A stretch of DNA of 64,000 bases from a bacterium (GCA_965233585.1 CBDDTI010000745.1:416001-480000), one strand, 5' to 3'. Shown: positions 23,525 to 33,262, counted from the first letter of the stretch. Numbers and translations: made by a program. Notes: a model not told the origin generated them from the letters alone.

Positions 23525-26500
23525 ATGTTCAAGAATTTTTCTTTATTCTTGATAATCCTGTCTTCTTTAGGGTTAGGTGGATTCTACCTGACCCGCTACT
23601 CTCTTAATCATTTTGAACAGGTTGTTTTGTCTTACACAGGTCTGCGTCCTGTTGTTGGGGGTTTTTCATGGCAACACAACCCAGACCAAACTCTGGACAT
23701 CATTTTGGAAGACACTGCTTTGTTTTCTGAAGGTCAGCAACGCAATGTTTTTTCACTAAAAAAGTTGTACGTCCGTTTGAATCTTGATGCCATTTGGAAG
23801 GCAAAACTTCATCTTTTAGATTTCACCTTAGATTCTCCCAAAATGGAGCTATTCATTGATGAAGAAAGCAAAGTGTATCTGGGAGAGTGGAAACTGCCAA
23901 TGAGTTTAAAAACTGCTAGCAATGCTCAATCTTTCATACAAATTGACAAAAAGTTCTTAGTTCAAAATGGTCAAATCTCCTTCAAATATGGTCAATTCAT
24001 TAATCATCAGTTGCAAAATCTTAACATTCATCTTCAAGAGACGGACAACTCACAAGTAATAGTTGGCACTGCAAACTTGGCAAGGGAGCAACAAGAGGCA
24101 GGCGATCTTGCCTTCTTTGCTACATTTCAACAAGACAAGCTGGAAGTCAAATATCAAGCCAAAGACTTCCAAATGCTTTTTGCATCTCCGTCAAATATTT
24201 CAAAAATACAAAGCACTTTGGGCATAGAAGGTCGTTACCTTTTCAATAAAGCCACCAAGCAACACACTCTATTCACAAACTTTCAGGCTCAAGAGACCCT
24301 TTTGCAAACGTTCCAACCTGTCAAACAGTCCATTGCATTTGGAAAAATAAAAGGGTTGATAGACTGGGACAGCAAGCGAGATGGTCAAGTCATACAGATT
24401 AACGTTGAACCTTTTCAATTTCCTCTTGGAAGACTAAAGACCAACATCACACTCAATGTTTCAGAGGACTCTCTTGTCAAAGTCAACTTGACAAGCACAC
24501 CCTTCAGCATTGAAGAAGCAAAACCTTATCTTTTGATGTTTGTGCCACCAGAGGCAACAGATTGGATCAACCGCTCTTTGCTGGGTGGCAACGTTCAAGA
24601 TTTAACTGCACAAATTGAGCTTCCATTTGACAGCCCCAGCATGCTCAAACCTCAATTTCACCTTAAAGCAAATGTTTCTGAAGCAAGCATTGAAACTTAC
24701 GGAGGACTGCCCCAATTCAGGCAAGCGGCAGGTAGCCTTGTTGTCAACAATGAAGGCTTATTTGTCAATGTGGCAAAAGGAAGGTTTTCATCAGTTCAAG
24801 CTAAAGGAGTTGTGGAAATTTTGTTTGATTCGCCTCAAGGTCATGTTCCTTTAAAGGTGGAAGCATCAGGAACGGGTCAAATCAGCCCCGTTTGGCAGGA
24901 CGTGCAACAGTTCTTAGACCTAGAAGTGCTTAATTCACTGACATTGCAAGGCACTGCTGACGCAGCTTTCAGCTTGAAGACCAATTTAGATGATGACTCT
25001 GCTTGGGATATGCTGGTGCATGTGAAACCACAAAAAAGCTCAGGTTTGTTTCAACAGCAAAGAGATTGGAAGTTGGAGCAGATTCAAGGAGATATTTTGG
25101 TCTCCCTTAATGACATCACCTTTCAAAAGGTGCAAACCAAATTAGAAGGGTTTTCTACAACACTAGACGGAGTGATTCATTTTTTCCCACTTTACGGAGA
25201 AGGTCAGTTGCATCTTGCACAACTTCAAACATTGTTACCGATGATAGACCAGCAGTTTGAACCACTACTTCCCAAAAAACTTGATGCGTTTGCTCAAATT
25301 TCTTTTGAAAGGGACGCTTTTGAAAACATTCTTGTCAAATCACAAATGCAACTTCAAGATGGACAAGGAGGCAAGACCAGCGGAACATTGAACTTTGACA
25401 CCTCACACATCAACTTGACACAACAAGGAAGGCTTGCAGGCTCAAAAATCAATCTGCAATACAATCTGGAACACTACAAATTAGAACATCAATCAGGCAA
25501 CTTGGAAATTGAAAATAATGATTTACAGCTCAAACTTGACTTAAAAGCCTCCTCAAATTCCTATGTTGTGGACGTTGATGCCAATGAGATTGACATTGAA
25601 AAAGCGATGCAATGGCAACTTTCCCCCAAGCTGCTCAGCTGGTTTCCTAACCTGTCAAACAATTCTTCATTTTCTGCTCAATCCATCAGTGCCAACCTTG
25701 ATATTCAAAAGGTCATGATCATGCAGTACGAAGGTTTATTACAAGGACGTTTTAATTTTAAAAGGTATGATTCATCTAGTTATGAAGTCAAGGCATCTCA
25801 AGTCAAACTTGATGGCGTACAAGGCAGCGGACTTTTTAAACAGACCCAAAGTCAAAACTTTGTCACGCTTAATTTTCAATTCATTGACCTGCCAAAAATT
25901 CATTCATATTACCAAAAATTTTATCCCACATTTAAAAACTCAACCCCTTCTATGTCTGAAACGGGGTTGTATCATGTAGATTTTTCTATTTACGCATCTC
26001 AAGTCAAATTTTCTGAAGATTTTGTCATTCCAATTCAAACAGAAGGTTCATTCAACATTGCGGATAACAGACAACTCATTTATGCCATTTTTGATCAATT
26101 TCAGTGGGGAGACCAGACTTTGCAACTCTATCTGGTGGATTATCAAGAAGATTTAAAGCTCTATCTCTATTCTCCCAAAGTGCTGTTAGAACCTTATCTT
26201 GAACTTTTTCAACAATTCTCTTTTTTAACAGAGGGAACAGAAGGCAAGGATTCTGCTGATGTTTCGGTAGGCATTCAACTGGTGACCCCAAACTTCCAGA
26301 TAGACCCTCAAATGACAGTGTCTTTGAACACAACCTTTGAGCTTCAAACCCAAGCAGATGATGCCTTTAAACTTAATTTTCAATACCTTGCTTTAAACCA
26401 TTACCAGATGAGGGGAAAGATGTCTCTTGACCAAAACGATGAGAACAATACAAACAATGTGAACATTCAAGCAACATTTGATGACCTCAACTTGTTACTA

Positions 26501-27775
26501 CTCTACCAAGACATCAAACGATGGTCTCCCATTCTCCGTCAACGTTTGATAACAGACTCTCAATCTGCTCAACCTACCGAATCCCACAAAGAATGGTCTG
26601 TTCAATTTGACTTGCAAACCAGTCAGTTGTTCCTTTCTCAACTTGAGACGCCTAGCCTATGGGAGTTACAAAAAGCTAAAGAGTTGACTCTGCAAGGTCA
26701 GTTAGATTTAAGTCCGCAGCAAAGTCATTTACAAATAGACCATTTTCGGTGGGGAGGTCAAAAAGCATCAGGCAAGGCAAACTTGGAAAAAGAAGAATGG
26801 AAGGTATTATTAGACTTTCAACGTTTTGAGCTTCAAGAATGGCTTGATGTGTCTCATTTGATTACAATGTCCCAACCACAGCAAACTAACGATCAGTCTT
26901 CCAATCTTTGGGCTTTTCAGCTTCCAGATTTGTGCCTAGATTTTCAGCTGACTGCTGAGCAATTCCTGTTAAAAGCAGAAGAGTTAGACGATTTAGAATT
27001 GGCTTTTCAGGTGGACGATCAATTACTTGCCATTCATCAACTACGTTGGAGCAAAAATAATGAACAAGTGTTGTCTCTCAACACCACTTTAAGCCCTAAA
27101 GACCAAGAATGGCAGGGAACGTTCAAAAGTGAGATTCAAAGTATTGATGCCTTGCTTGACTTCTTCATTGCATCAGATTCTACCGAATCCTCATCATATT
27201 TGACCCAACGTTCCAATGCTTTGTTAGAAGGAAAGGTGAAATTGGTTCAACTTCCAGAAGGTCTATGGCAACCTGAAATAGACTTTGATTTTACTTTAGA
27301 AGATGGGTCAATTTTGGAAGAATCCACGACTGCCTTGATTCTTGCACCCATTTCTATTCAAAGTTATGTCCGACTCTTCAAGGGGGAGTCTTCTACTTTC
27401 ACACAAGAAGAAATTGTTTATGACAAGATTCATGCACAAGGCAAACTTCAAGGTGCTTTTTTGTCTCTTGAAAGTTTTATCTTTGAAACACCCTTGTTTA
27501 ACTTAGCAGCATCAGGTGAAGCAAAGTTTGACACAGAACAAGCCAGAATGCTTGTTTGCTTGCAACCCTTCAATACATTGGATAGCCTGATTCAAAACAT
27601 TCCTGCAGTTGGCGAGTCATTAGTCAGCGAGTATGGAGGTATTTTTGAGGGTTGTTATTTGAATATTCAGGAGTTTGGAGAGAACACTCAAATCTTTTTA
27701 CCAACTTCTATTGTCCCCGGCGCTTTGAAAAATCATTTGCTGACCGACCCTTCATTTGAGACTTCTAGCAGTTAA
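23525..27775 (+). CDS. AsmA-like/YhdP family large periplasmic beta-rich protein
   Basis: 1416 aa with one N-terminal TM; DWINRSLLGGNV; C-terminal AsmA_2-like segment (YDKIHAQGKLQG...QPFNTLDSLIQNIPAVG). Confidence 0.75.
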   Translation: MFKNFSLFLIILSSLGLGGFYLTRYSLNHFEQVVLSYTGLRPVVGGFSWQHNPDQTLDIILEDTALFSEGQQRNVFSLKKLYVRLNLDAIWKAKLHLLDFTLDSPKMELFIDEESKVYLGEWKLPMSLKTASNAQSFIQIDKKFLVQNGQISFKYGQFINHQLQNLNIHLQETDNSQVIVGTANLAREQQEAGDLAFFATFQQDKLEVKYQAKDFQMLFASPSNISKIQSTLGIEGRYLFNKATKQHTLFTNFQAQETLLQTFQPVKQSIAFGKIKGLIDWDSKRDGQVIQINVEPFQFPLGRLKTNITLNVSEDSLVKVNLTSTPFSIEEAKPYLLMFVPPEATDWINRSLLGGNVQDLTAQIELPFDSPSMLKPQFHLKANVSEASIETYGGLPQFRQAAGSLVVNNEGLFVNVAKGRFSSVQAKGVVEILFDSPQGHVPLKVEASGTGQISPVWQDVQQFLDLEVLNSLTLQGTADAAFSLKTNLDDDSAWDMLVHVKPQKSSGLFQQQRDWKLEQIQGDILVSLNDITFQKVQTKLEGFSTTLDGVIHFFPLYGEGQLHLAQLQTLLPMIDQQFEPLLPKKLDAFAQISFERDAFENILVKSQMQLQDGQGGKTSGTLNFDTSHINLTQQGRLAGSKINLQYNLEHYKLEHQSGNLEIENNDLQLKLDLKASSNSYVVDVDANEIDIEKAMQWQLSPKLLSWFPNLSNNSSFSAQSISANLDIQKVMIMQYEGLLQGRFNFKRYDSSSYEVKASQVKLDGVQGSGLFKQTQSQNFVTLNFQFIDLPKIHSYYQKFYPTFKNSTPSMSETGLYHVDFSIYASQVKFSEDFVIPIQTEGSFNIADNRQLIYAIFDQFQWGDQTLQLYLVDYQEDLKLYLYSPKVLLEPYLELFQQFSFLTEGTEGKDSADVSVGIQLVTPNFQIDPQMTVSLNTTFELQTQADDAFKLNFQYLALNHYQMRGKMSLDQNDENNTNNVNIQATFDDLNLLLLYQDIKRWSPILRQRLITDSQSAQPTESHKEWSVQFDLQTSQLFLSQLETPSLWELQKAKELTLQGQLDLSPQQSHLQIDHFRWGGQKASGKANLEKEEWKVLLDFQRFELQEWLDVSHLITMSQPQQTNDQSSNLWAFQLPDLCLDFQLTAEQFLLKAEELDDLELAFQVDDQLLAIHQLRWSKNNEQVLSLNTTLSPKDQEWQGTFKSEIQSIDALLDFFIASDSTESSSYLTQRSNALLEGKVKLVQLPEGLWQPEIDFDFTLEDGSILEESTTALILAPISIQSYVRLFKGESSTFTQEEIVYDKIHAQGKLQGAFLSLESFIFETPLFNLAASGEAKFDTEQARMLVCLQPFNTLDSLIQNIPAVGESLVSEYGGIFEGCYLNIQEFGENTQIFLPTSIVPGALKNHLLTDPSFETSSS

Positions 27776-27832: not shown

Positions 27833-28480
27833 ATGACACAAATTGACCTTAAAACATTACGACAAGAATACATGCTTGCAGGTTTAACACGCAGTGATTT
27901 AAATCTGAACCCTTTTGAGCAGTTCCAAAAATGGTTTCAACAAGCGTGTGACTCCCAAATTCCCATGCCAAATGCCATGCTCCTTGCCACAGTAGATTTG
28001 TCAGGGAATCCCTCAACAAGAGCAGTCTTGTTGAATGAGCTACAAGATGAAAGATTCTTATTTTTTACAAACTATGGAAGTAGCAAGGGGCAACACATTC
28101 AAAATCATTCTACTGTGAGCTTGCATTTTCTGTGGGCGGCACTTGAAAGGCAAATCAGGATTGTAGGCACTGCCACAAAAACAAGTTTGGAACAATCCCA
28201 AAAATACTTTGCCTCGCGCCCCAGAGGCAGTCAGATTTCAGCATGGTCATCTCAACAAAGCCAGCCTGTGAACTCACGTGCAGATTTAGAAGCAGACTTT
28301 GAAACCTTTAGCAAAAAATTTGAAGGTCAAGACGTCCCTTTGCCTGAACACTGGGGAGGCTATGCTGTCCAAGCCACTCATTTTGAGTTTTGGCAAGGTC
28401 GCAGAGACCGTTTGCATGACCGCTTTCAATACCAGCTAGATGCACAAAATCATTGGACTATCCAAAGGCTGTCTCCTTAA
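27833..28480 (+). CDS. pdxH: Pyridoxamine 5'-phosphate oxidase
   Basis: LRQEY, FFTNYGSSKG, YFASRPRGSQ, WGGY and EFWQGRRDRLHDR. Confidence 0.97.
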   Translation: MTQIDLKTLRQEYMLAGLTRSDLNLNPFEQFQKWFQQACDSQIPMPNAMLLATVDLSGNPSTRAVLLNELQDERFLFFTNYGSSKGQHIQNHSTVSLHFLWAALERQIRIVGTATKTSLEQSQKYFASRPRGSQISAWSSQQSQPVNSRADLEADFETFSKKFEGQDVPLPEHWGGYAVQATHFEFWQGRRDRLHDRFQYQLDAQNHWTIQRLSP

Positions 28481-28518: not shown

Positions 28519-28727
28519 GTCATTGAATGCTTGATACAAAATCTCAAAGAAAGAACATGAATACTCTCAAAAAAGAGAGATTGCGGGTCAAGCCCGCAAT
28601 GACTAAGTCCAAGTTAAGCAATAACCAAAAGAAACAAACACGTCACTTGAGTTTTTGACACAAAATCTCAAAGAAAGAACATGAATACTCTCAAAAAAGA
28701 GAGATTGCGGGTCAAGCCTGCAATGAC
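28519..28727. repeat. Palindromic (REP-like) repeat cluster 1
   Basis: Degenerate forward units at 28519-28545 and 28641-28669, each paired with GAGATTGCGGGTCAAGCCYGCAATGAC (28577-28603, 28701-28727); 124-bp period. Confidence 0.9.
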
Positions 28728-29567
28728 GGGAGGCTTCTTTTCCCCTTCTTTGAAGGTCAACAAGCCAGCGGCTTGTTGCTGGCGGGCGTGCCTGACGGGG
28801 TAGTCCTTACTTCTTCGCCATGGCTCACCTTGATCCGCAACTATTCCTGTTTATCCTCTATTTTTCTTTTACTTTATTTTCAACTCTTTCTTAAAAAATC
28901 TGCTAGACTAGATGTTTTTAAATTTAGAAAATTTCAGCTGAGAGGTCAGGATGTCAGAACGTTTAGATAGAATAGAAAAAATCTTAGCAGAAGCCAGTAT
29001 CATTGCTAAAGAAGCCAGTATCATTGCTAAAGAAGCCCATGAAACAGTCAAAGCTGTTGCCAAACAGCAAGAAAAAACTGATGCTCAAATTGCAAGAACT
29101 GATGCCCAAATTGCCAAAGTATCTAAACAACTAGGGGGTTTTGTTAACAACGCAGGTTTAATCCTAGAAGACCGAATCTATCGTTGTTTTGAAGAGGCTT
29201 TAGGACAGAACATTTCTATTGAAATAGAAGGCATTCACTATGACCGTCTCAACAGGAATATCAGTGGAAAATTTGGTCCAACAACTGGACAATATGACAT
29301 CTCTTTGTTCAATCACGACCATGTCTTGATTATAGAAGTCAAAAGAAAAGCACATGTCAACGACATTGAGCAGATTCTCAAGCAAAAGCAAACCTTTCCT
29401 ATTGTTTTTCCTCACTTCAAAAATTTTACCTTTCACTTAGCATTAGCCAGTGAATCTTTTGACAAAGATTTGATGCAAGAAGCCAAAGCCAACCAGATTT
29501 ACCTAATGCAAGAAAAAGCAGGAGTCATTCAAATCATTGCTCCCTAACAGCTTAAACTTCCTTCCTT
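28632..29567 (+). repeat. 936-bp direct repeat, copy A
   Basis: Matches 31145-32080 at a constant offset of 2513 bp with about 26 substitutions (hand count). Confidence 0.93.
28951..29547 (+). CDS. Heptad coiled-coil plus PD-(D/E)XK nuclease-like protein (DUF3782-like), copy A
   Basis: N-terminal EASIIAK x2 and TDAQIA(R/K) x2; candidate catalytic residues E73, D116 and E129-V-K131 (GQYD...IIEVKRK); GAGAGG-like RBS. Confidence 0.75.
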   Translation: MSERLDRIEKILAEASIIAKEASIIAKEAHETVKAVAKQQEKTDAQIARTDAQIAKVSKQLGGFVNNAGLILEDRIYRCFEEALGQNISIEIEGIHYDRLNRNISGKFGPTTGQYDISLFNHDHVLIIEVKRKAHVNDIEQILKQKQTFPIVFPHFKNFTFHLALASESFDKDLMQEAKANQIYLMQEKAGVIQIIAP

Positions 29568-29574
29568 CCTTCTC

Positions 29575-29922
29575 CGTCATTCCGCACTTGATGCGGAATC
29601 TTAAAAACAAGAGTATGAACACTTTCAAAAAAGAGAGATTGCGGGTCAAGCCCGCAATGACTAAGAAACAAGCACATCATTTGAGCTTTTGACACAGAAT
29701 CTCAAACGCTCTCCGTCATTCCGCACTTGATGCGGAATCTATCACCAAACCAAGCATGGATTCCTAGCGTGAATGGATTCCTGCGAAAGCAGGAATGACA
29801 ACTATTGTCATTGAGTTTTTGACACAAAATCTCTCTTAAACCAAGCATGGATTCCTAGCGTGAATGGATTCCTGCGAAAGCAGGAATGACAGGAGAAGTT
29901 TGCAGGCTTGACACGGAATGAT
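29575..29922. repeat. Palindromic (REP-like) repeat cluster 2
   Basis: CGTCATTCCGCACTTGATGCGGAATCT at 29575 and 29714; GAGATTGCGGG...AATGAC at 29635; GGATTCCTGCGAAAGCAGGAATGAC at 29775 and 29866; degenerate units at 29675 and 29807. Confidence 0.9.
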
Positions 29923-30009
29923 GGTTGGCAAGTTGGTACAATTCAGGAGAGATTTCTGTTGGCATATCTAATTCGGCAGTGCACATAGTTAATTTATCTA
30001 TCTTTTTGC

Positions 30010-30038
30010 TTGACAAATTTAGGTTTATCTGGTAGAAC
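30010..30038 (+). promoter_or_regulatory. sigma70 promoter of the cargo operon
   Basis: TTGACA (30010-15)-17 bp-TAGAAC (30033-38) with extended -10 TG. Confidence 0.7.
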
Positions 30039-30111
30039 AGTGAGTTTATTAATTTCCATTAAGTTAGCTTATCTATAAAGTTAGCTATCTGAACAATTTT
30101 CTCAATCCAAT

Positions 30112-30129
30112 TCAGACAATATTGTCTGA
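30112..30129. promoter_or_regulatory. Perfect 18-bp palindrome, candidate operator
   Basis: TCAGACAAT|ATTGTCTGA between the promoter and ORF 30236. Confidence 0.5.
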
Positions 30130-30235
30130 TAATTTTACCCTCTAAACCAACAGGCTATTTTCTCCGATTTCTTTCATAGAGTTGACTTAGAGTAAATTAA
30201 CCTCAAAAAACTTCACTGACTTCATTAACATCAAA

Positions 30236-30454
30236 ATGATGAACCTAGATGACTTAGATCAAGAGCTTGAAGCGATTAGCCAAGAGCAACCCCTCAAAAA
30301 TGTATCCAAATTTCAGATCCCTAATGATGAGGAAGATTTTGACTCTATCTCTAAACAAGGTTTGAAATCTATGTCAGAAGATAAAAGCCTTATAGAAGGA
30401 GCCATCAAAATTCAGGAGAAGTTAGAAAAGAATGAATCAAACAGTTGCCAGTGA
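30236..30454 (+). CDS. Small acidic protein, candidate antitoxin
   Basis: 72 aa, D/E-rich, overlaps the downstream ORF by 23 nt. Confidence 0.55.
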   Translation: MMNLDDLDQELEAISQEQPLKNVSKFQIPNDEEDFDSISKQGLKSMSEDKSLIEGAIKIQEKLEKNESNSCQ

Positions 30455-30914
30455 AAAAGAGCTTCGCTCTCATATTGTTCAAGTTGTCAAAAAATTTGAC
30501 GACGAATTTTTGAAAGATTCCAGAATTGTTGAGTCAAAACTCTATCCGCATATTCACCTCAACAAAAGAGTTCTTGTTGAAGCAATCAAGCATGCAAGGC
30601 TTGATATAGAAAGGATGTCATCTTTTCACATTCCCAAGAACTGCCGTTTGGGGAAAAGTAAGTATGCAGGATTTTTGTCCAAATGGATTGCTAAAATGGT
30701 ACCTTTTTATATTGAGGATGGTCATCCTCTCTCTGAAAACATGTACCTGCTCAACAGTTATTTTGCATTTTGGGTCTTTCGTTCTTTTTTGGATAAGAAT
30801 ATCCCAGAAAAATTTCATATTTATCTTATCTATTCATTACATTTTCGTGATGAAAGAGGTGAAACACTAGCTCTACTTGCTCTGACGTTTCAATCTATCT
30901 CACCCCCAAAATAG
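30432..30914 (+). CDS. Hypothetical protein, possibly divergent Fic/Doc fold lacking the catalytic His
   Basis: KYAGFLSKWIAKMVPF...NSYFAF...FL parallels Doc KAAALL...KNHPF..GNKRTAF...FL, judged by eye. Confidence 0.55.
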   Translation: MNQTVASEKELRSHIVQVVKKFDDEFLKDSRIVESKLYPHIHLNKRVLVEAIKHARLDIERMSSFHIPKNCRLGKSKYAGFLSKWIAKMVPFYIEDGHPLSENMYLLNSYFAFWVFRSFLDKNIPEKFHIYLIYSLHFRDERGETLALLALTFQSISPPK

Positions 30915-30992
30915 ATTTTTTTAAATCACTCAAACGCATCAGCACTGATGCCACCGTCTTGGCAGCTTCCCGAGTCTCTTCTAAAACAGCAT

Positions 30993-31240
30993 CGTCATTC
31001 CTGCGAAAGCAGGAATCTTAAAAACAAAAGTGAGATTGCGGGTCAAGCCCGCAATGACCAAAAAACAAACACGTCACTTGAGTGCTTGGCACAGAATCTT
31101 AAAAACAAAAGTGAGATTGCGGGTCAAGCCTGCAATGACCAAAAAAACAAACACGTCACTTGAGTTTTTGACACAAAATCTCAAAGAAAGAACATGAATA
31201 CTCTCAAAAAAGAGAGATTGCGGGTCAAGCCCGCAATGAC
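30993..31240. repeat. Palindromic (REP-like) repeat cluster 3
   Basis: CGTCATTCCTGCGAAAGCAGGAATCT at 30993; GAGATTGCGGG... units at 31032, 31113 and 31214; degenerate forward units at 31072 and 31154. Confidence 0.9.
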
Positions 31241-32080
31241 GGAAGGCTTCTTTTCCCCTTCTTTGAAGGTCAACAAGCCAGCGGCTTGTTGCTGGCGTGC
31301 GTGCCTGACGGGGTAGTCCTTACTTCTTCGCCATGGCTCACCTTGATCCGCAACTATTCCTGTTTATCCTCTATTTTTCTTTTACTTTATTTTCAACTCT
31401 TTCTTAAAAAATCTGCTAGACTAGATGTTTTTAAATTTAGAAAATTTCAGCTGAGAGGTCAGGATGTCAGAACGTTTAGATAGAATAGAAAAAATCTTAG
31501 CAGAAGCCAGTATCATTGCTAAAGAAGCCAGTATCATTGCTAAAGAAGCCCATGAAACAGTCAAAGCTGTTGCCAAACAGCAAGAAAAAACTGATGCTCA
31601 AATTGCAAGAACTGATACTCAAATTGCCAAAGTGTCCAAACAACTAGGGGGTTTTGTTAACAACGCGGGTTTAATCCTAGAAGACCGAATCTATCGTTGT
31701 TTTGAAGAGACGTTAGGGCAGAATATGTCTATTGAAATAGAAGGCATTCACTATGACCGACTCAACAGAAACATCAGTGGCAAATTTGGTCAGACCACTG
31801 GACAATTTGACATCTCTTTGTTCAATCACTGCCACGTCTTGATTATAGAAGTCAAAAGAAAAGCACATGTCAACGACATTGAGCAGATTCTCAAGCAAAA
31901 GCAAACCTTTCCTATTGTTTTTCCTCACTTCAAAAACTTTACCTTTCACTTAGCATTAGCCAGTGAATCCTTTGACAAAGATTTGATGCAAGAAGCCAAA
32001 GCCAACCAGATTTACCTAATGCAAGAAAAAGCAGGAGTCATTCAAATCATTGCTCCCTAACAGCTTAAACTTCCTTCCTT
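31145..32080 (+). repeat. 936-bp direct repeat, copy B
   Basis: Matches 28632-29567. Confidence 0.93.
31464..32060 (+). CDS. Heptad coiled-coil plus PD-(D/E)XK nuclease-like protein (DUF3782-like), copy B
   Basis: 192/198 residues identical to copy A. Confidence 0.75.
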   Translation: MSERLDRIEKILAEASIIAKEASIIAKEAHETVKAVAKQQEKTDAQIARTDTQIAKVSKQLGGFVNNAGLILEDRIYRCFEETLGQNMSIEIEGIHYDRLNRNISGKFGQTTGQFDISLFNHCHVLIIEVKRKAHVNDIEQILKQKQTFPIVFPHFKNFTFHLALASESFDKDLMQEAKANQIYLMQEKAGVIQIIAP

Positions 32081-32149
32081 ACTTCACACACCCATAACTT
32101 TTTCTGACTCCTGATTTTCTCTTTTGCCTTGCCACGACTTTTGTTCTTT

Positions 32150-32348
32150 GAGATTCCTGCTTTCGCAAGAATGACAACTATTGTCATTAAGTGCTTGACA
32201 CCAAATCTCAAACGCTCTCCGTCATTCCGCACTTGATGCGGAATCTTAAAAACAAGAGTCCGAACACTTTCAAAAAAGAGAGATTGCGGGTCAAGCCCGC
32301 AATGACCAAAAAAACAAATCCGCAGTGACGACTTGAGTTTGACAGAAT
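32150..32348. repeat. Palindromic (REP-like) repeat cluster 4
   Basis: Units at 32150-32175, 32183-32209, 32220-32246 and 32280-32306, plus a partial unit near 32331. Confidence 0.88.
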
Positions 32349-32502
32349 AACGACTTGAGCTTGCTAGCTTCCCCTCAAATTTACTTCTTTTTTCAACTTT
32401 TTTGAAAAATTTTTAAAACCCCTTAAATTTTTTTCAAAAACCCTCAAACCCCCGTCTTTCCTAACCTCCCAGTCTGATCCTTTTTCAACTTTTAAAAATT
32501 TT

Positions 32503-33262
32503 GGCATTGTTAATTAATAAGTGATAGCTGATTATTCCGTTTTGCCATGAACAAAAGAACAGAATATTGTAATGCTTTAAGAGACTTGCTGTAACATTTG
32601 GTTTTCCTTCTCATTCTTGCCAAGAAATGTCTCAAGAGAGAATTATACCCTTCTACCGTGTATGTTTCTGCCTTGGAACATGTATGAATTTCTTTGGGAA
32701 TGACTTGTTTGTAAGCCTTGCAGTGATCAGTCATCACCTGAAGAGGTTTTGTTTCCTTGACCTTGTCCCATAAATGCCTACAGGCTTTTGAGTCTCTGTT
32801 TCCAAGCATACAATTGATAAATTGCTTCCCACGTCTATCAACAGCAATCCAGAGCCAGCAGTAGTTTTTTTTGACTGGATGTAGGTGTACATTTCATCAA
32901 TTTCCATAATTTCAATGTCTGTGTCCTTTCTTAATGCCTTGAGCTGTTCGCCAAAACTACAGACCCAATTATAAACTGAAACATGAGAACAATTCAGCAA
33001 ACGACCGATTGACCTGAAACCAAGACCCTCCAAATACAACTCTAATGCTCTTCTTTTGATCTGTGGTGAGATTTGACCACGATAGGACTTGGTATATTGA
33101 TAGTTGCAGGCATTGCAACGCCTCCTCGGTTTACCATATAAAAAACCATTCTTAACCGTCTTCTCACTTTCACATCTAGGACACGACTTCATTGCTACAC
33201 CATGACTATCAATTCAATTAAATGAACTTAATATCGCATATCACTTATAGTTTAACAATACC
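32503..33262 (-). mobile_element. IS1-family insertion sequence (760 bp)
   Basis: 24-bp terminal inverted repeats GGCATTGTTAATTAATAAGTGATA / GGTATTGTTAAACTATAAGTGATA (20/24 match) enclose InsA- and InsB-like ORFs. Confidence 0.92.
32510..33192 (-). CDS. IS1 transposase InsAB, joined by a -1 frameshift
   Basis: Zinc finger CPRC...CNAC, HTH and EIDEM; A8C run at 32864-32872 shifts into NYCWLWIAVDR...TD...VEGYNSLLRHFLAR..RKTKCYSKS. Confidence 0.9.

Follow-up and report, generated by a model that had tools for sequence, protein, structure and literature searches.

We analysed a 64,000-nt stretch of a bacterial genome (GCA_965233585.1, CBDDTI010000745.1:416001-480000; hereafter the window, with positions counted from its first nucleotide), in which clusters of short hairpin-forming palindromes alternate with small genes next to pdxH. 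The genome holding the window is referred to as G000 and its contig as C745, while G005, G007 and similar handles denote other genomes of the same phylum. The left border of the region is the housekeeping gene pdxH, which encodes pyridoxamine 5'-phosphate oxidase (27833-28480, + strand; Pfam PNPOx_N, 84 bits, and PNP_phzG_C, 68 bits), and the right border is formed by TPR-pyrD genes. pdxH is followed by a 4.8-kb stretch with four palindrome clusters, two open reading frames (ORFs) of 198 aa, a pair of ORFs encoding 72 and 160 aa, and an element of the IS1 family of insertion sequences (ISs). The locus is a mosaic repeat region of the type known from repetitive extragenic palindromic (REP) sequences and neisserial intergenic mosaic elements (NIMEs), with a recent paralog duplication, a unique insert and an IS1 copy alongside, and the interval from pdxH to TPR-pyrD is in our opinion likely to be a small accessory island built from three ordinary components.

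Hairpins were defined as ATT followed by a 5-nt stem, a loop of 4-6 nt, the complementary stem (at most one mismatch) and AAT, with GTC or GAC as the flank, and the frame of the family is GTC-ATT-stem-CTTGA/GAAA-stem'-AAT-C. By this definition, the window contains 14 hairpins, all located between 28580 and 32303 and arranged in the four clusters, to which no strand is assigned (the orientation of single hairpins is given as > or <). Cluster 1 (28519-28727) consists of two composite units of ~88 nt, each closed by a < hairpin (28580-28600, stem GCGGG; 28704-28724, stem GCAGG with one mismatch), and its segments have ~100-130 blastn matches elsewhere in the genome. Cluster 2 (29571-29919) contains hairpins at 29579 (>CCGCA), 29638 (<GCGGG), 29718 (>CCGCA), and 29777 and 29868 (both <CCTGC), together with degenerate units. 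Cluster 3 (30990-31243) has hairpins at 30997 (>CCTGC), 31035 (<GCGGG), 31116 (<GCAGG) and 31217 (<GCGGG), and cluster 4 (32148-32309) at 32153 (<CTTGC, one mismatch), 32224 (>CCGCA) and 32283 (<GCGGG). The initial annotation, which had placed four repeat clusters at the borders of the gene modules and had seen no such repeats elsewhere in the 64 kb, was accurate on both counts.

Each module border carries 2-5 hairpins in mixed orientation. At the mean density of the six hairpin-bearing contigs of the genome, 0.53 hairpins would be expected in 3.83 kb; only 9 of 737 bins of 4 kb hold at least 10 hairpins, and the maximum is 14. Every unit folds separately as an 8-bp hairpin (z-scores of -3.8 to -5.5 relative to shuffled sequences), and the ends of the composite units stay unpaired. 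Given the excess over expectation and the distinct folds, the repeats are therefore a real feature of the sequence. Rfam yielded a single match at chance level, to FtrB, with 26 bits where the gathering score is 66. In the GCGGG hairpin, the 3' arm (..GCCCGCAAT-GAC) matches the heptamer CCGCAAT.

The two 198-aa ORFs, p198a (28951-29547) and p198b (31464-32060), both on the + strand, lie in two collinear segments, copy A (28628-29661, +) and copy B (31141-32306, +), in each of which a hairpin unit and a 220-nt block precede the gene and a hairpin doublet follows it; in copy B, ~132 additional bp (~32082-32215) stand after the gene. Pairwise alignment of the segments revealed 4 mismatches in 323 positions upstream of the gene, 0/145 in codons 1-48, 21/230 in codons 49-125, 2/222 in codons 126-199 and 2/91 in the downstream doublet. 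The genes themselves differ at 23 of 597 nt, 21 of which fall within codons 49-125, so the copies are mosaic, with near-identical ends and a centre that is 9% divergent, a pattern that fits gene conversion. In the central patch, the two other copies of the same subfamily (subfamily 1) show mixed agreement with A or B. Modules 1 and 3 are the two copies of one recent direct segmental duplication of 1.0-1.2 kb that included the flanking hairpins, and not independent cassettes.

The source of the duplicated unit can be considered in the light of a GC-rich block (28729-28833, +) that contains a decayed hairpin unit and lies between cluster 1 and p198a. Its homologs, with blastn identity of 83-84%, were found at C723:34689-34793, C747:905901-906005 and C747:942185-942261; at all three loci, the matching sequence lies 3' of the stop codon of a large lipoprotein gene, and a p198 paralog follows downstream. 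The number of units in the array differs among the homologous lipoprotein-to-p198 spacers of three loci. From the match of the upstream block and the differing numbers of units, it follows that the gene unit was copied from such a locus and that the arrays are dynamic.

The product of p198a is predicted to consist of a coiled coil (helix at residues 2-61) and a C-terminal PD-(D/E)XK nuclease domain. The AlphaFold2 (AF2) model (predicted local distance difference test score, pLDDT, of 80) displays the long N-terminal helix followed by an alpha/beta domain, in agreement with the initial description of a heptad-repeat and PD-(D/E)XK-like protein. The best Foldseek matches in the PDB were XisH (2okf, 2inb), the small subunit of R.BspD6I, the nuclease domains of Card1 and Can2, and NucS, with a probability of 1.00 for XisH, Card1, Can2, R.BspD6I and NucS. 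No variation at residues E73, D116, E129 and K131 was seen among 16 paralogs, and the D, E and K do not vary among 50 remote family members either; the fold and the D...E-x-K catalytic core are those by which PD-(D/E)XK enzymes are recognized. At the sequence level, the window protein had only chance coiled-coil matches in Pfam at E <= 0.1, with no match to DUF3782; a profile search of PDB sequences returned only Can2 (E 0.46), and a word-based homolog search found proteins of the own genome only. A profile of the C-terminal domain collected 1216 cluster representatives at E <= 0.001, and among 30 of these that were scanned, Card1_endonuc was matched by 8 (one above the cut-off), PDDEXK_10 by 5, NERD by 4 and DUF3782 by 3 (all sub-threshold).

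DUF3782 proteins are described (PMC4786415) as prokaryotic PD-(D/E)XK endonucleases on coiled-coil stalks, without known function. The 198-aa protein resembles them in combining an N-terminal coiled coil of variable length with a C-terminal PD-(D/E)XK domain, and the model supports its description as a putative nuclease of the DUF3782 type, although the window protein itself has no match to the Pfam DUF3782 model. It also differs in copy number: G000 contains 35 copies, many of them in tandem arrays, whereas the same profile found 1-2 copies in 7 of 40 relatives and none in the other 33. Among the paralogs, the length of the coiled-coil N-terminus differs through in-frame repeats of 21 nt and longer (28989-29037 and 29073-29114 in the window). 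N-terminal modules such as MSERLDRIEKILAEASIIAKEA are common to otherwise distant subfamilies, and the stalks have therefore presumably been shuffled between paralogs.

Between the duplicated copies lies an insert (~29920-30990) that is unique in the genome, and its pair of ORFs (30236-30914, + strand; 72 aa at 30236-30454 and 160 aa at 30432-30914, overlapping by 23 nt) occurs as a single copy. The two proteins had no match in Pfam, NCBIfam, PADLOC or PHROG and no usable match in a protein atlas; only three remote homologs were found, and the AF2 model of the 160-aa protein (pLDDT 57) was unusable. Thus, the middle module is indeed an unrelated and unique ORF pair, but the promoter of its own that had been attributed to it did not appear: ahead of 30236, a consensus scan detected nothing promoter-like on the + strand, and the whole region contained 4 such sites compared with 7.7 +/- 3.0 in shuffled sequences.

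The IS1-family element (32494-33262, - strand) begins ~190 bp to the right of the last hairpin. Its transposase gene is frameshifted and lies on the minus strand as two ORFs (32734-33192 and 32510-32809), which scored 93 and 70 bits with the NCBIfam model transpos_IS1 (NF033558; cut-off 100) and 38 bits with Pfam DDE_Tnp_IS1; both ORFs remain below 100 bits because the gene is split. As is usual for IS1, the transposase is of the InsA/InsB type, occupies two frames and is enclosed by terminal inverted repeats, which were read from the sequence. Of 37 blastn matches to the element in the genome, 32 are near full length with identity of 98.7-100%, and the element has therefore probably been active recently. 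A derivation of the hairpins from IS1 as miniature inverted-repeat transposable elements was considered and rejected, as the ends of IS1, again read from the sequence, are unlike the hairpins.

The remainder of the window is unremarkable. Pfam matches, all to ordinary cellular families, were obtained for 40 of the other 46 crude ORFs scanned, and 6 had none; no integrase or transposase was among these 46. The initial statement that no integrase, recombinase or REP-associated tyrosine transposase (RAYT) is encoded in the window is thus right for these ORFs, but the IS1 transposase had been overlooked. An ORF of 1416 aa upstream of pdxH (23525-27775) is without a Pfam match at E <= 1e-5. In 24 relatives, no pdxH match exceeded 49% identity, and within 1.5 kb of pdxH, none of the 11 relatives' loci retrieved has a neighbor gene in common with the window. 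Five public runs from two studies, none listed as RNA, contain half or more of the words sampled from the stretch. In four public runs (short Logan contigs), contig ends fall at the hairpin clusters, e.g., at 28565 and in a piece covering 29885-31042. The apparent joints in these contigs have short sides (21-35 nt) and are compatible with other genomic copies of the repeats, and they are therefore neutral with respect to module turnover.

Is the hairpin family a peculiarity of this locus, or is it spread through the genome? We counted 430 oriented copies in G000, 413 of which are located on six contigs (C745, C746, C747, C723, C295 and C729; 2.96 Mb), and the remaining 17 are distributed over 15 of the 741 other contigs. 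With the units oriented by GTC, nearly every loop is CTTGA; the most frequent stems include CCGCA (88 copies), GCGGG (75), CCGTG (55) and CCTGC with a GAAA loop (35), and most copies are 21 nt long with the ends ATT(C/G)C...G(G/C)AAT. Adjacent units are most commonly arranged as >< and <>, with spacers of 10-39 nt and mixed stems. The same repeats are present at ~100 other genomic sites, mostly beside unrelated genes. In this, the family agrees with REPs and bacterial interspersed mosaic elements (BIMEs), which are short extragenic palindromes present in many copies whose orientation alternates within clusters.

A second REP family, GTAG-GGACAAAC-CCAAGT-GTTTGTCC, has 41 copies in the genome, none of them in the window; for 34 copies, a GTCATT hairpin is no more than 300 bp away. 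In places (e.g., C747:941400-942330), this second family is organized as tandem units of ~100 bp, with GTCATT hairpins in alternation. The six contigs also carry all 32 tblastn matches to the 198-aa protein and all 37 blastn matches to IS1, in addition to 413 of the 430 hairpins. The other 9.05 Mb of the assembly are similar in GC content, and their long-ORF coverage is 0.41-0.85 (12 longest contigs checked) compared with 0.84-0.94. More than one organism or set of replicons may be combined in the assembly.

Hairpin arrays lie preferentially beside expanded gene families. A hairpin was found within 300 bp of 20 of 29 p198 paralog ORFs, compared with 201 of 2602 crude ORFs overall (7.7%), which bears out the expectation of a statistical tie between the repeats and the 198-aa family. 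Consistent values were obtained with a perfect hairpin within 500 bp (18 of 29 paralog matches on the three large contigs versus 6.9% of 20,000 random segments) and with any hairpin within 700 bp once rows of paralogs were collapsed by the author (17 of 21 loci). However, the link is not specific to the nuclease: lipoprotein genes (35/75), DUF1640-like genes (15/34) and IS1 (22/101 ORF pieces) are also enriched within 300 bp, and 26% of the ORFs in families of at least 20 members lie near a hairpin versus 4% of singletons. The immediate neighbors of the 413 hairpins were lipoprotein genes in 111 cases, genes of single or small families in 104, p198 paralogs in 78, IS1 in 45, DUF1640-like genes in 39 and other multi-copy genes in 36. 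From these co-location counts, it is fair to call the nuclease-like gene a frequent passenger or neighbor of the arrays, as the initial annotation had proposed. The type, place and orientation of the hairpins flanking the paralogs are irregular, no one-to-one pairing of the four hairpin stems with the four protein subfamilies was seen, and neither the five-gene array of subfamily 4 (three genes mapped) nor the third copy of subfamily 1 has a hairpin within 700 bp. The DUF1640-like genes are a crude family of 34 coiled-coil members assigned by eye (e.g., C746:87695-88216, C723:31803-32201, C729:76632-77105 and C747:908105-908551); most of them start with METALLFDTLKTSKHLQAAGF and contain repeats of the ATKE(Q/D) type in variable number. 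They often directly adjoin nuclease paralogs of subfamily 3, which suggests a recurrent gene pair.

Another important question is how old the hairpins are and by what means they have spread. We surveyed 88 genomes of the phylum with the pattern GTCATT-N5-CTTGA-N5-AATC, using the reversed pattern as a control. The pattern was present in 17 genomes (312 copies in G000, 139 in G005, 39 in G076, 30 in G009, 29 in G016, 17 in G015, 15 in G078, 11 in G006 and fewer in the rest), while the control gave no match anywhere. The hairpin family is thus old, clade-wide and genome-wide. The stems are lineage specific and compensatory, namely CCTGG/CCAGG in G005 and G015, CCGGG/CCCGG in G016, and CCGCA/TGCGG, GCGGG and CCGTG in G000, which points to selection on structure; the preservation of flanks and loop while the stems co-vary between genera argues for recognition by a conserved protein.

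The family is probably linked to RAYTs. The Pfam domain Y1_Tnp was detected in all 16 other hairpin-positive genomes and in 23 of 71 hairpin-negative ones, an association that is only a tendency because related genomes are not independent. The complete genome of G005 encodes a 312-aa protein with Y1_Tnp (53 bits) and Bac_DnaA_C domains, for which the top-scoring NCBIfam model, at 73 bits with a cut-off of 80, is "REP-associated tyrosine transposase". This gene is flanked by degenerate units of the hairpin family in inverted orientation; one stands 465 bp upstream, and two stand 175-210 bp downstream. In G000, a six-frame Pfam search detected no Y1_Tnp domain, and tblastn with the G005 and G076 proteins gave a best E value of 3.6. 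The only RAYT-like ORF of this genome (C747:112027-112707) scored 65 bits with NCBIfam NF047646 (cut-off 80) and 25.7 bits with PF01797 (cut-off 23) and may be a decaying or REP-colonized RAYT. This ORF contains an HUH-like MPNHIHGII motif and an FYDH tyrosine motif, and the palindromes inserted into it add a repeated peptide. The G000 genome has 11 tyrosine recombinase matches (PF00589), none of them on contig C745; neither IS110/Piv-type genes (PF01548, PF02371) nor TnpB was found.

Among known systems, the closest counterparts of the arrays are extragenic repeats. REPs, BIMEs and REP doublets forming hairpins (REPINs), with their RAYT (Y1) transposases, are known from Proteobacteria (PMC3116915, PMC3337134 and PMC5581495). 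The G000 arrays share with them GC-rich extragenic palindromes in hundreds of copies, alternating clusters with short spacers, a conserved flank with a compensatory stem, Y1 transposases in every other hairpin-bearing genome of the phylum, and, in G005, a RAYT-like gene flanked by degenerate units. They differ in the head of the unit, which is (C/T)GTC-ATT and not GTAG, in the RAYT-like ORF of G000, which is sub-cut-off, REP-inserted and not flanked by the GTCATT family, and in the presence of the separate 41-copy GTAG-headed family in the same arrays. In NIMEs (PMC1797815), variable RS elements are flanked by 20-bp dRS3 inverted repeats (ATTCCC-N8-GGGAAT); the arrays are long and dynamic, adjoin genes for surface proteins and have IS elements interspersed. 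The likeness extends to inverted repeats of 20-21 bp with ATT(C/G)C...G(G/C)AAT ends, long arrays with varied spacers and IS elements, and a variable number of units beside surface-protein and other multi-copy genes. The differences are an unrelated phylum, another sequence, and neither an IS110/Piv-type recombinase nor a filamentous phage detected in G000; the hairpins do not follow the dRS3 consensus, which serves an IS110/Piv-type phage recombinase as target, and the resemblance to NIMEs is architectural only. By this comparison, the architecture is that of E. coli BIMEs, with NIMEs even closer. The repeats of the window are thus REP/dRS3-like palindromes, as originally suggested, for which a role in recombination can be postulated, while the supposition of an undescribed system gives way to arrays of the REP/NIME type, which are no new kind of system.

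Taken together, we consider it probable that the locus combines mosaic REP arrays with a recent duplication, a unique insert and IS1, that the arrays are recombinogenic and that a RAYT has spread them. In this reading, a dispersed family of REP-type hairpins forms the mosaic arrays of the island, and the direct duplication carries one member of the nuclease family together with its flanking hairpin units. The arrays would act as portable homology and as hot spots of secondary structure that favor ectopic recombination, duplication and gene conversion of neighboring paralogs, and by favoring such events they would in consequence accumulate and co-amplify with the paralogs. The hairpins themselves would be spread by a RAYT-type Y1 transposase, as in the relatives, rather than by the nuclease. 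Several observations weigh against this explanation. A search among the extant copies for the origin of the divergent centre of p198b identified no donor. The tie to the paralog family could reflect co-duplication, as tandem copies are not independent counts, or a tolerance of repeats in dispensable DNA. As to the transposase, no flanking units were present at the Y1 loci retrieved from G076, G009 and G016, so that one of four loci is flanked; the RAYT-like ORF of G000 does not reach the cut-off of its NCBIfam model, was missed by the six-frame Pfam search and contains three GTAG-type palindromes inserted in frame; no GTCATT-type hairpin occurs within ~3 kb of it; and the GTCATT family lacks the GTAG head, which stands 5' of the hairpin in typical RAYT-linked REPs.

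The lack of a RAYT flanked by the GTCATT family in G000 leaves room for the nuclease itself, which might be functionally tied to the hairpins by nicking them in a structure-specific manner and, in a RAYT-like way, mobilize them or drive its own copies into the arrays. The co-location of paralogs and hairpins described above, with a paralog directly adjoining 78 of 413 hairpins, and the invariance of the catalytic D, E and K residues agree with this possibility, as does a locus in another genus, G007, where a nuclease homolog stands beside a local array of six CCAACG-N4-CGTTGG palindromes. At that locus (L036, G007:C364:2397-4864, ~445-1390), the homolog lies ~50 bp from six GGTTCCCAACG-N4-CGTTGGGAACC palindromes whose orientation alternates, or seven if a degenerate copy is included; elsewhere in the G007 genome, the exact 16-nt pattern was not found. 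However, a GC-rich hairpin motif repeated within the locus was recognized, on the author's reading, at only 3 of 25 homolog loci in other genomes, all in G007. Across the 88 genomes, nuclease and hairpin families are not co-distributed: there are nuclease copies with one hairpin or none (13 copies and one hairpin in G007, 10 and none in G070) and hairpins with one nuclease copy or none (39 hairpins and no copy in G076, 11 and none in G006, 15 and none in G078, 139 and one in G005). Because the phylum-wide distributions do not match, the idea that the nuclease is the mobilizer is unlikely; in G000 itself, the hairpin-free subfamily-4 array and third subfamily-1 copy, the irregular flanking hairpins and the comparable enrichment beside other families point the same way. 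A related but even less probable proposal is that the hairpin arrays have been co-opted as recombination landing pads, with the nuclease making the first nicks at extruded hairpins, and that they shuffle and amplify variable coiled-coil and surface-protein families, the 35-copy nuclease family included. The proposal takes the GTC-ATT...CTTGA...AAT-C frame with its lineage-specific stems as the mark of a DNA hairpin that a protein recognizes and that has persisted in at least two families of the phylum, and it notes the REP insertions in the RAYT-like gene of G000. If true, the arrays and a structure-specific nuclease dedicated to them would together generate diversity in the manner of NIMEs.

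Two further explanations concern the hairpins as RNA signals and as recombination sites of cassettes. Some REPs of E. coli act as terminators or stabilizers of mRNA 3' ends, and the hairpins could likewise function mainly at the RNA level and have been copied along with the genes they serve. The region indeed contains 13 terminator-like sites compared with 3.6 +/- 2.1 in shuffled sequences, five of which are a GCGGG hairpin followed by CTCTCTTTTT, and in the tandem arrays of the nuclease family a > unit with a GCGGG/GTGGG stem recurs ~110 nt upstream of the next gene. These five sites, however, read as terminators on the minus strand only, opposite to the flanking genes, the other stems have no T run, and the arrays are long and mix units of either orientation; we therefore hold a mainly RNA-level function to be improbable. 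By far the least credible is the integron-like cassette system envisaged at the outset, in which the clusters would be attC-like sites and a recombinase encoded elsewhere would move the three modules. Integron cassette arrays have IntI, a tyrosine recombinase encoded next to attI and Pc, and one uniformly oriented attC per cassette, which folds as one long imperfect hairpin. Small co-oriented genes with imperfect palindromes between them, repeats at the borders of all three modules and 88-nt composite units of attC-like size are reminiscent of such arrays, but none of the tyrosine recombinase matches lies on the contig of the window, no IntI is present there, and IS110/Piv-type and TnpB genes are likewise missing from the genome. 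Moreover, each junction has several units of mixed orientation instead of one oriented site, the units form separate 8-bp folds with unpaired ends and no single long attC fold, the same repeats are found genome-wide, mostly beside unrelated genes, and modules 1 and 3, repeats included, are one duplication.

The explanation that we prefer, RAYT-spread REP arrays that promote recombination of their neighbors, places the locus among documented mosaic arrays of the REP/NIME type, here in a poorly studied and mostly uncultured phylum. The arrays are of interest for genome plasticity, as they are concentrated beside lipoproteins, coiled-coil proteins and a nuclease family of 35 copies, and the extreme expansion of this family in G000 offers a handle for studying DUF3782-type nucleases.

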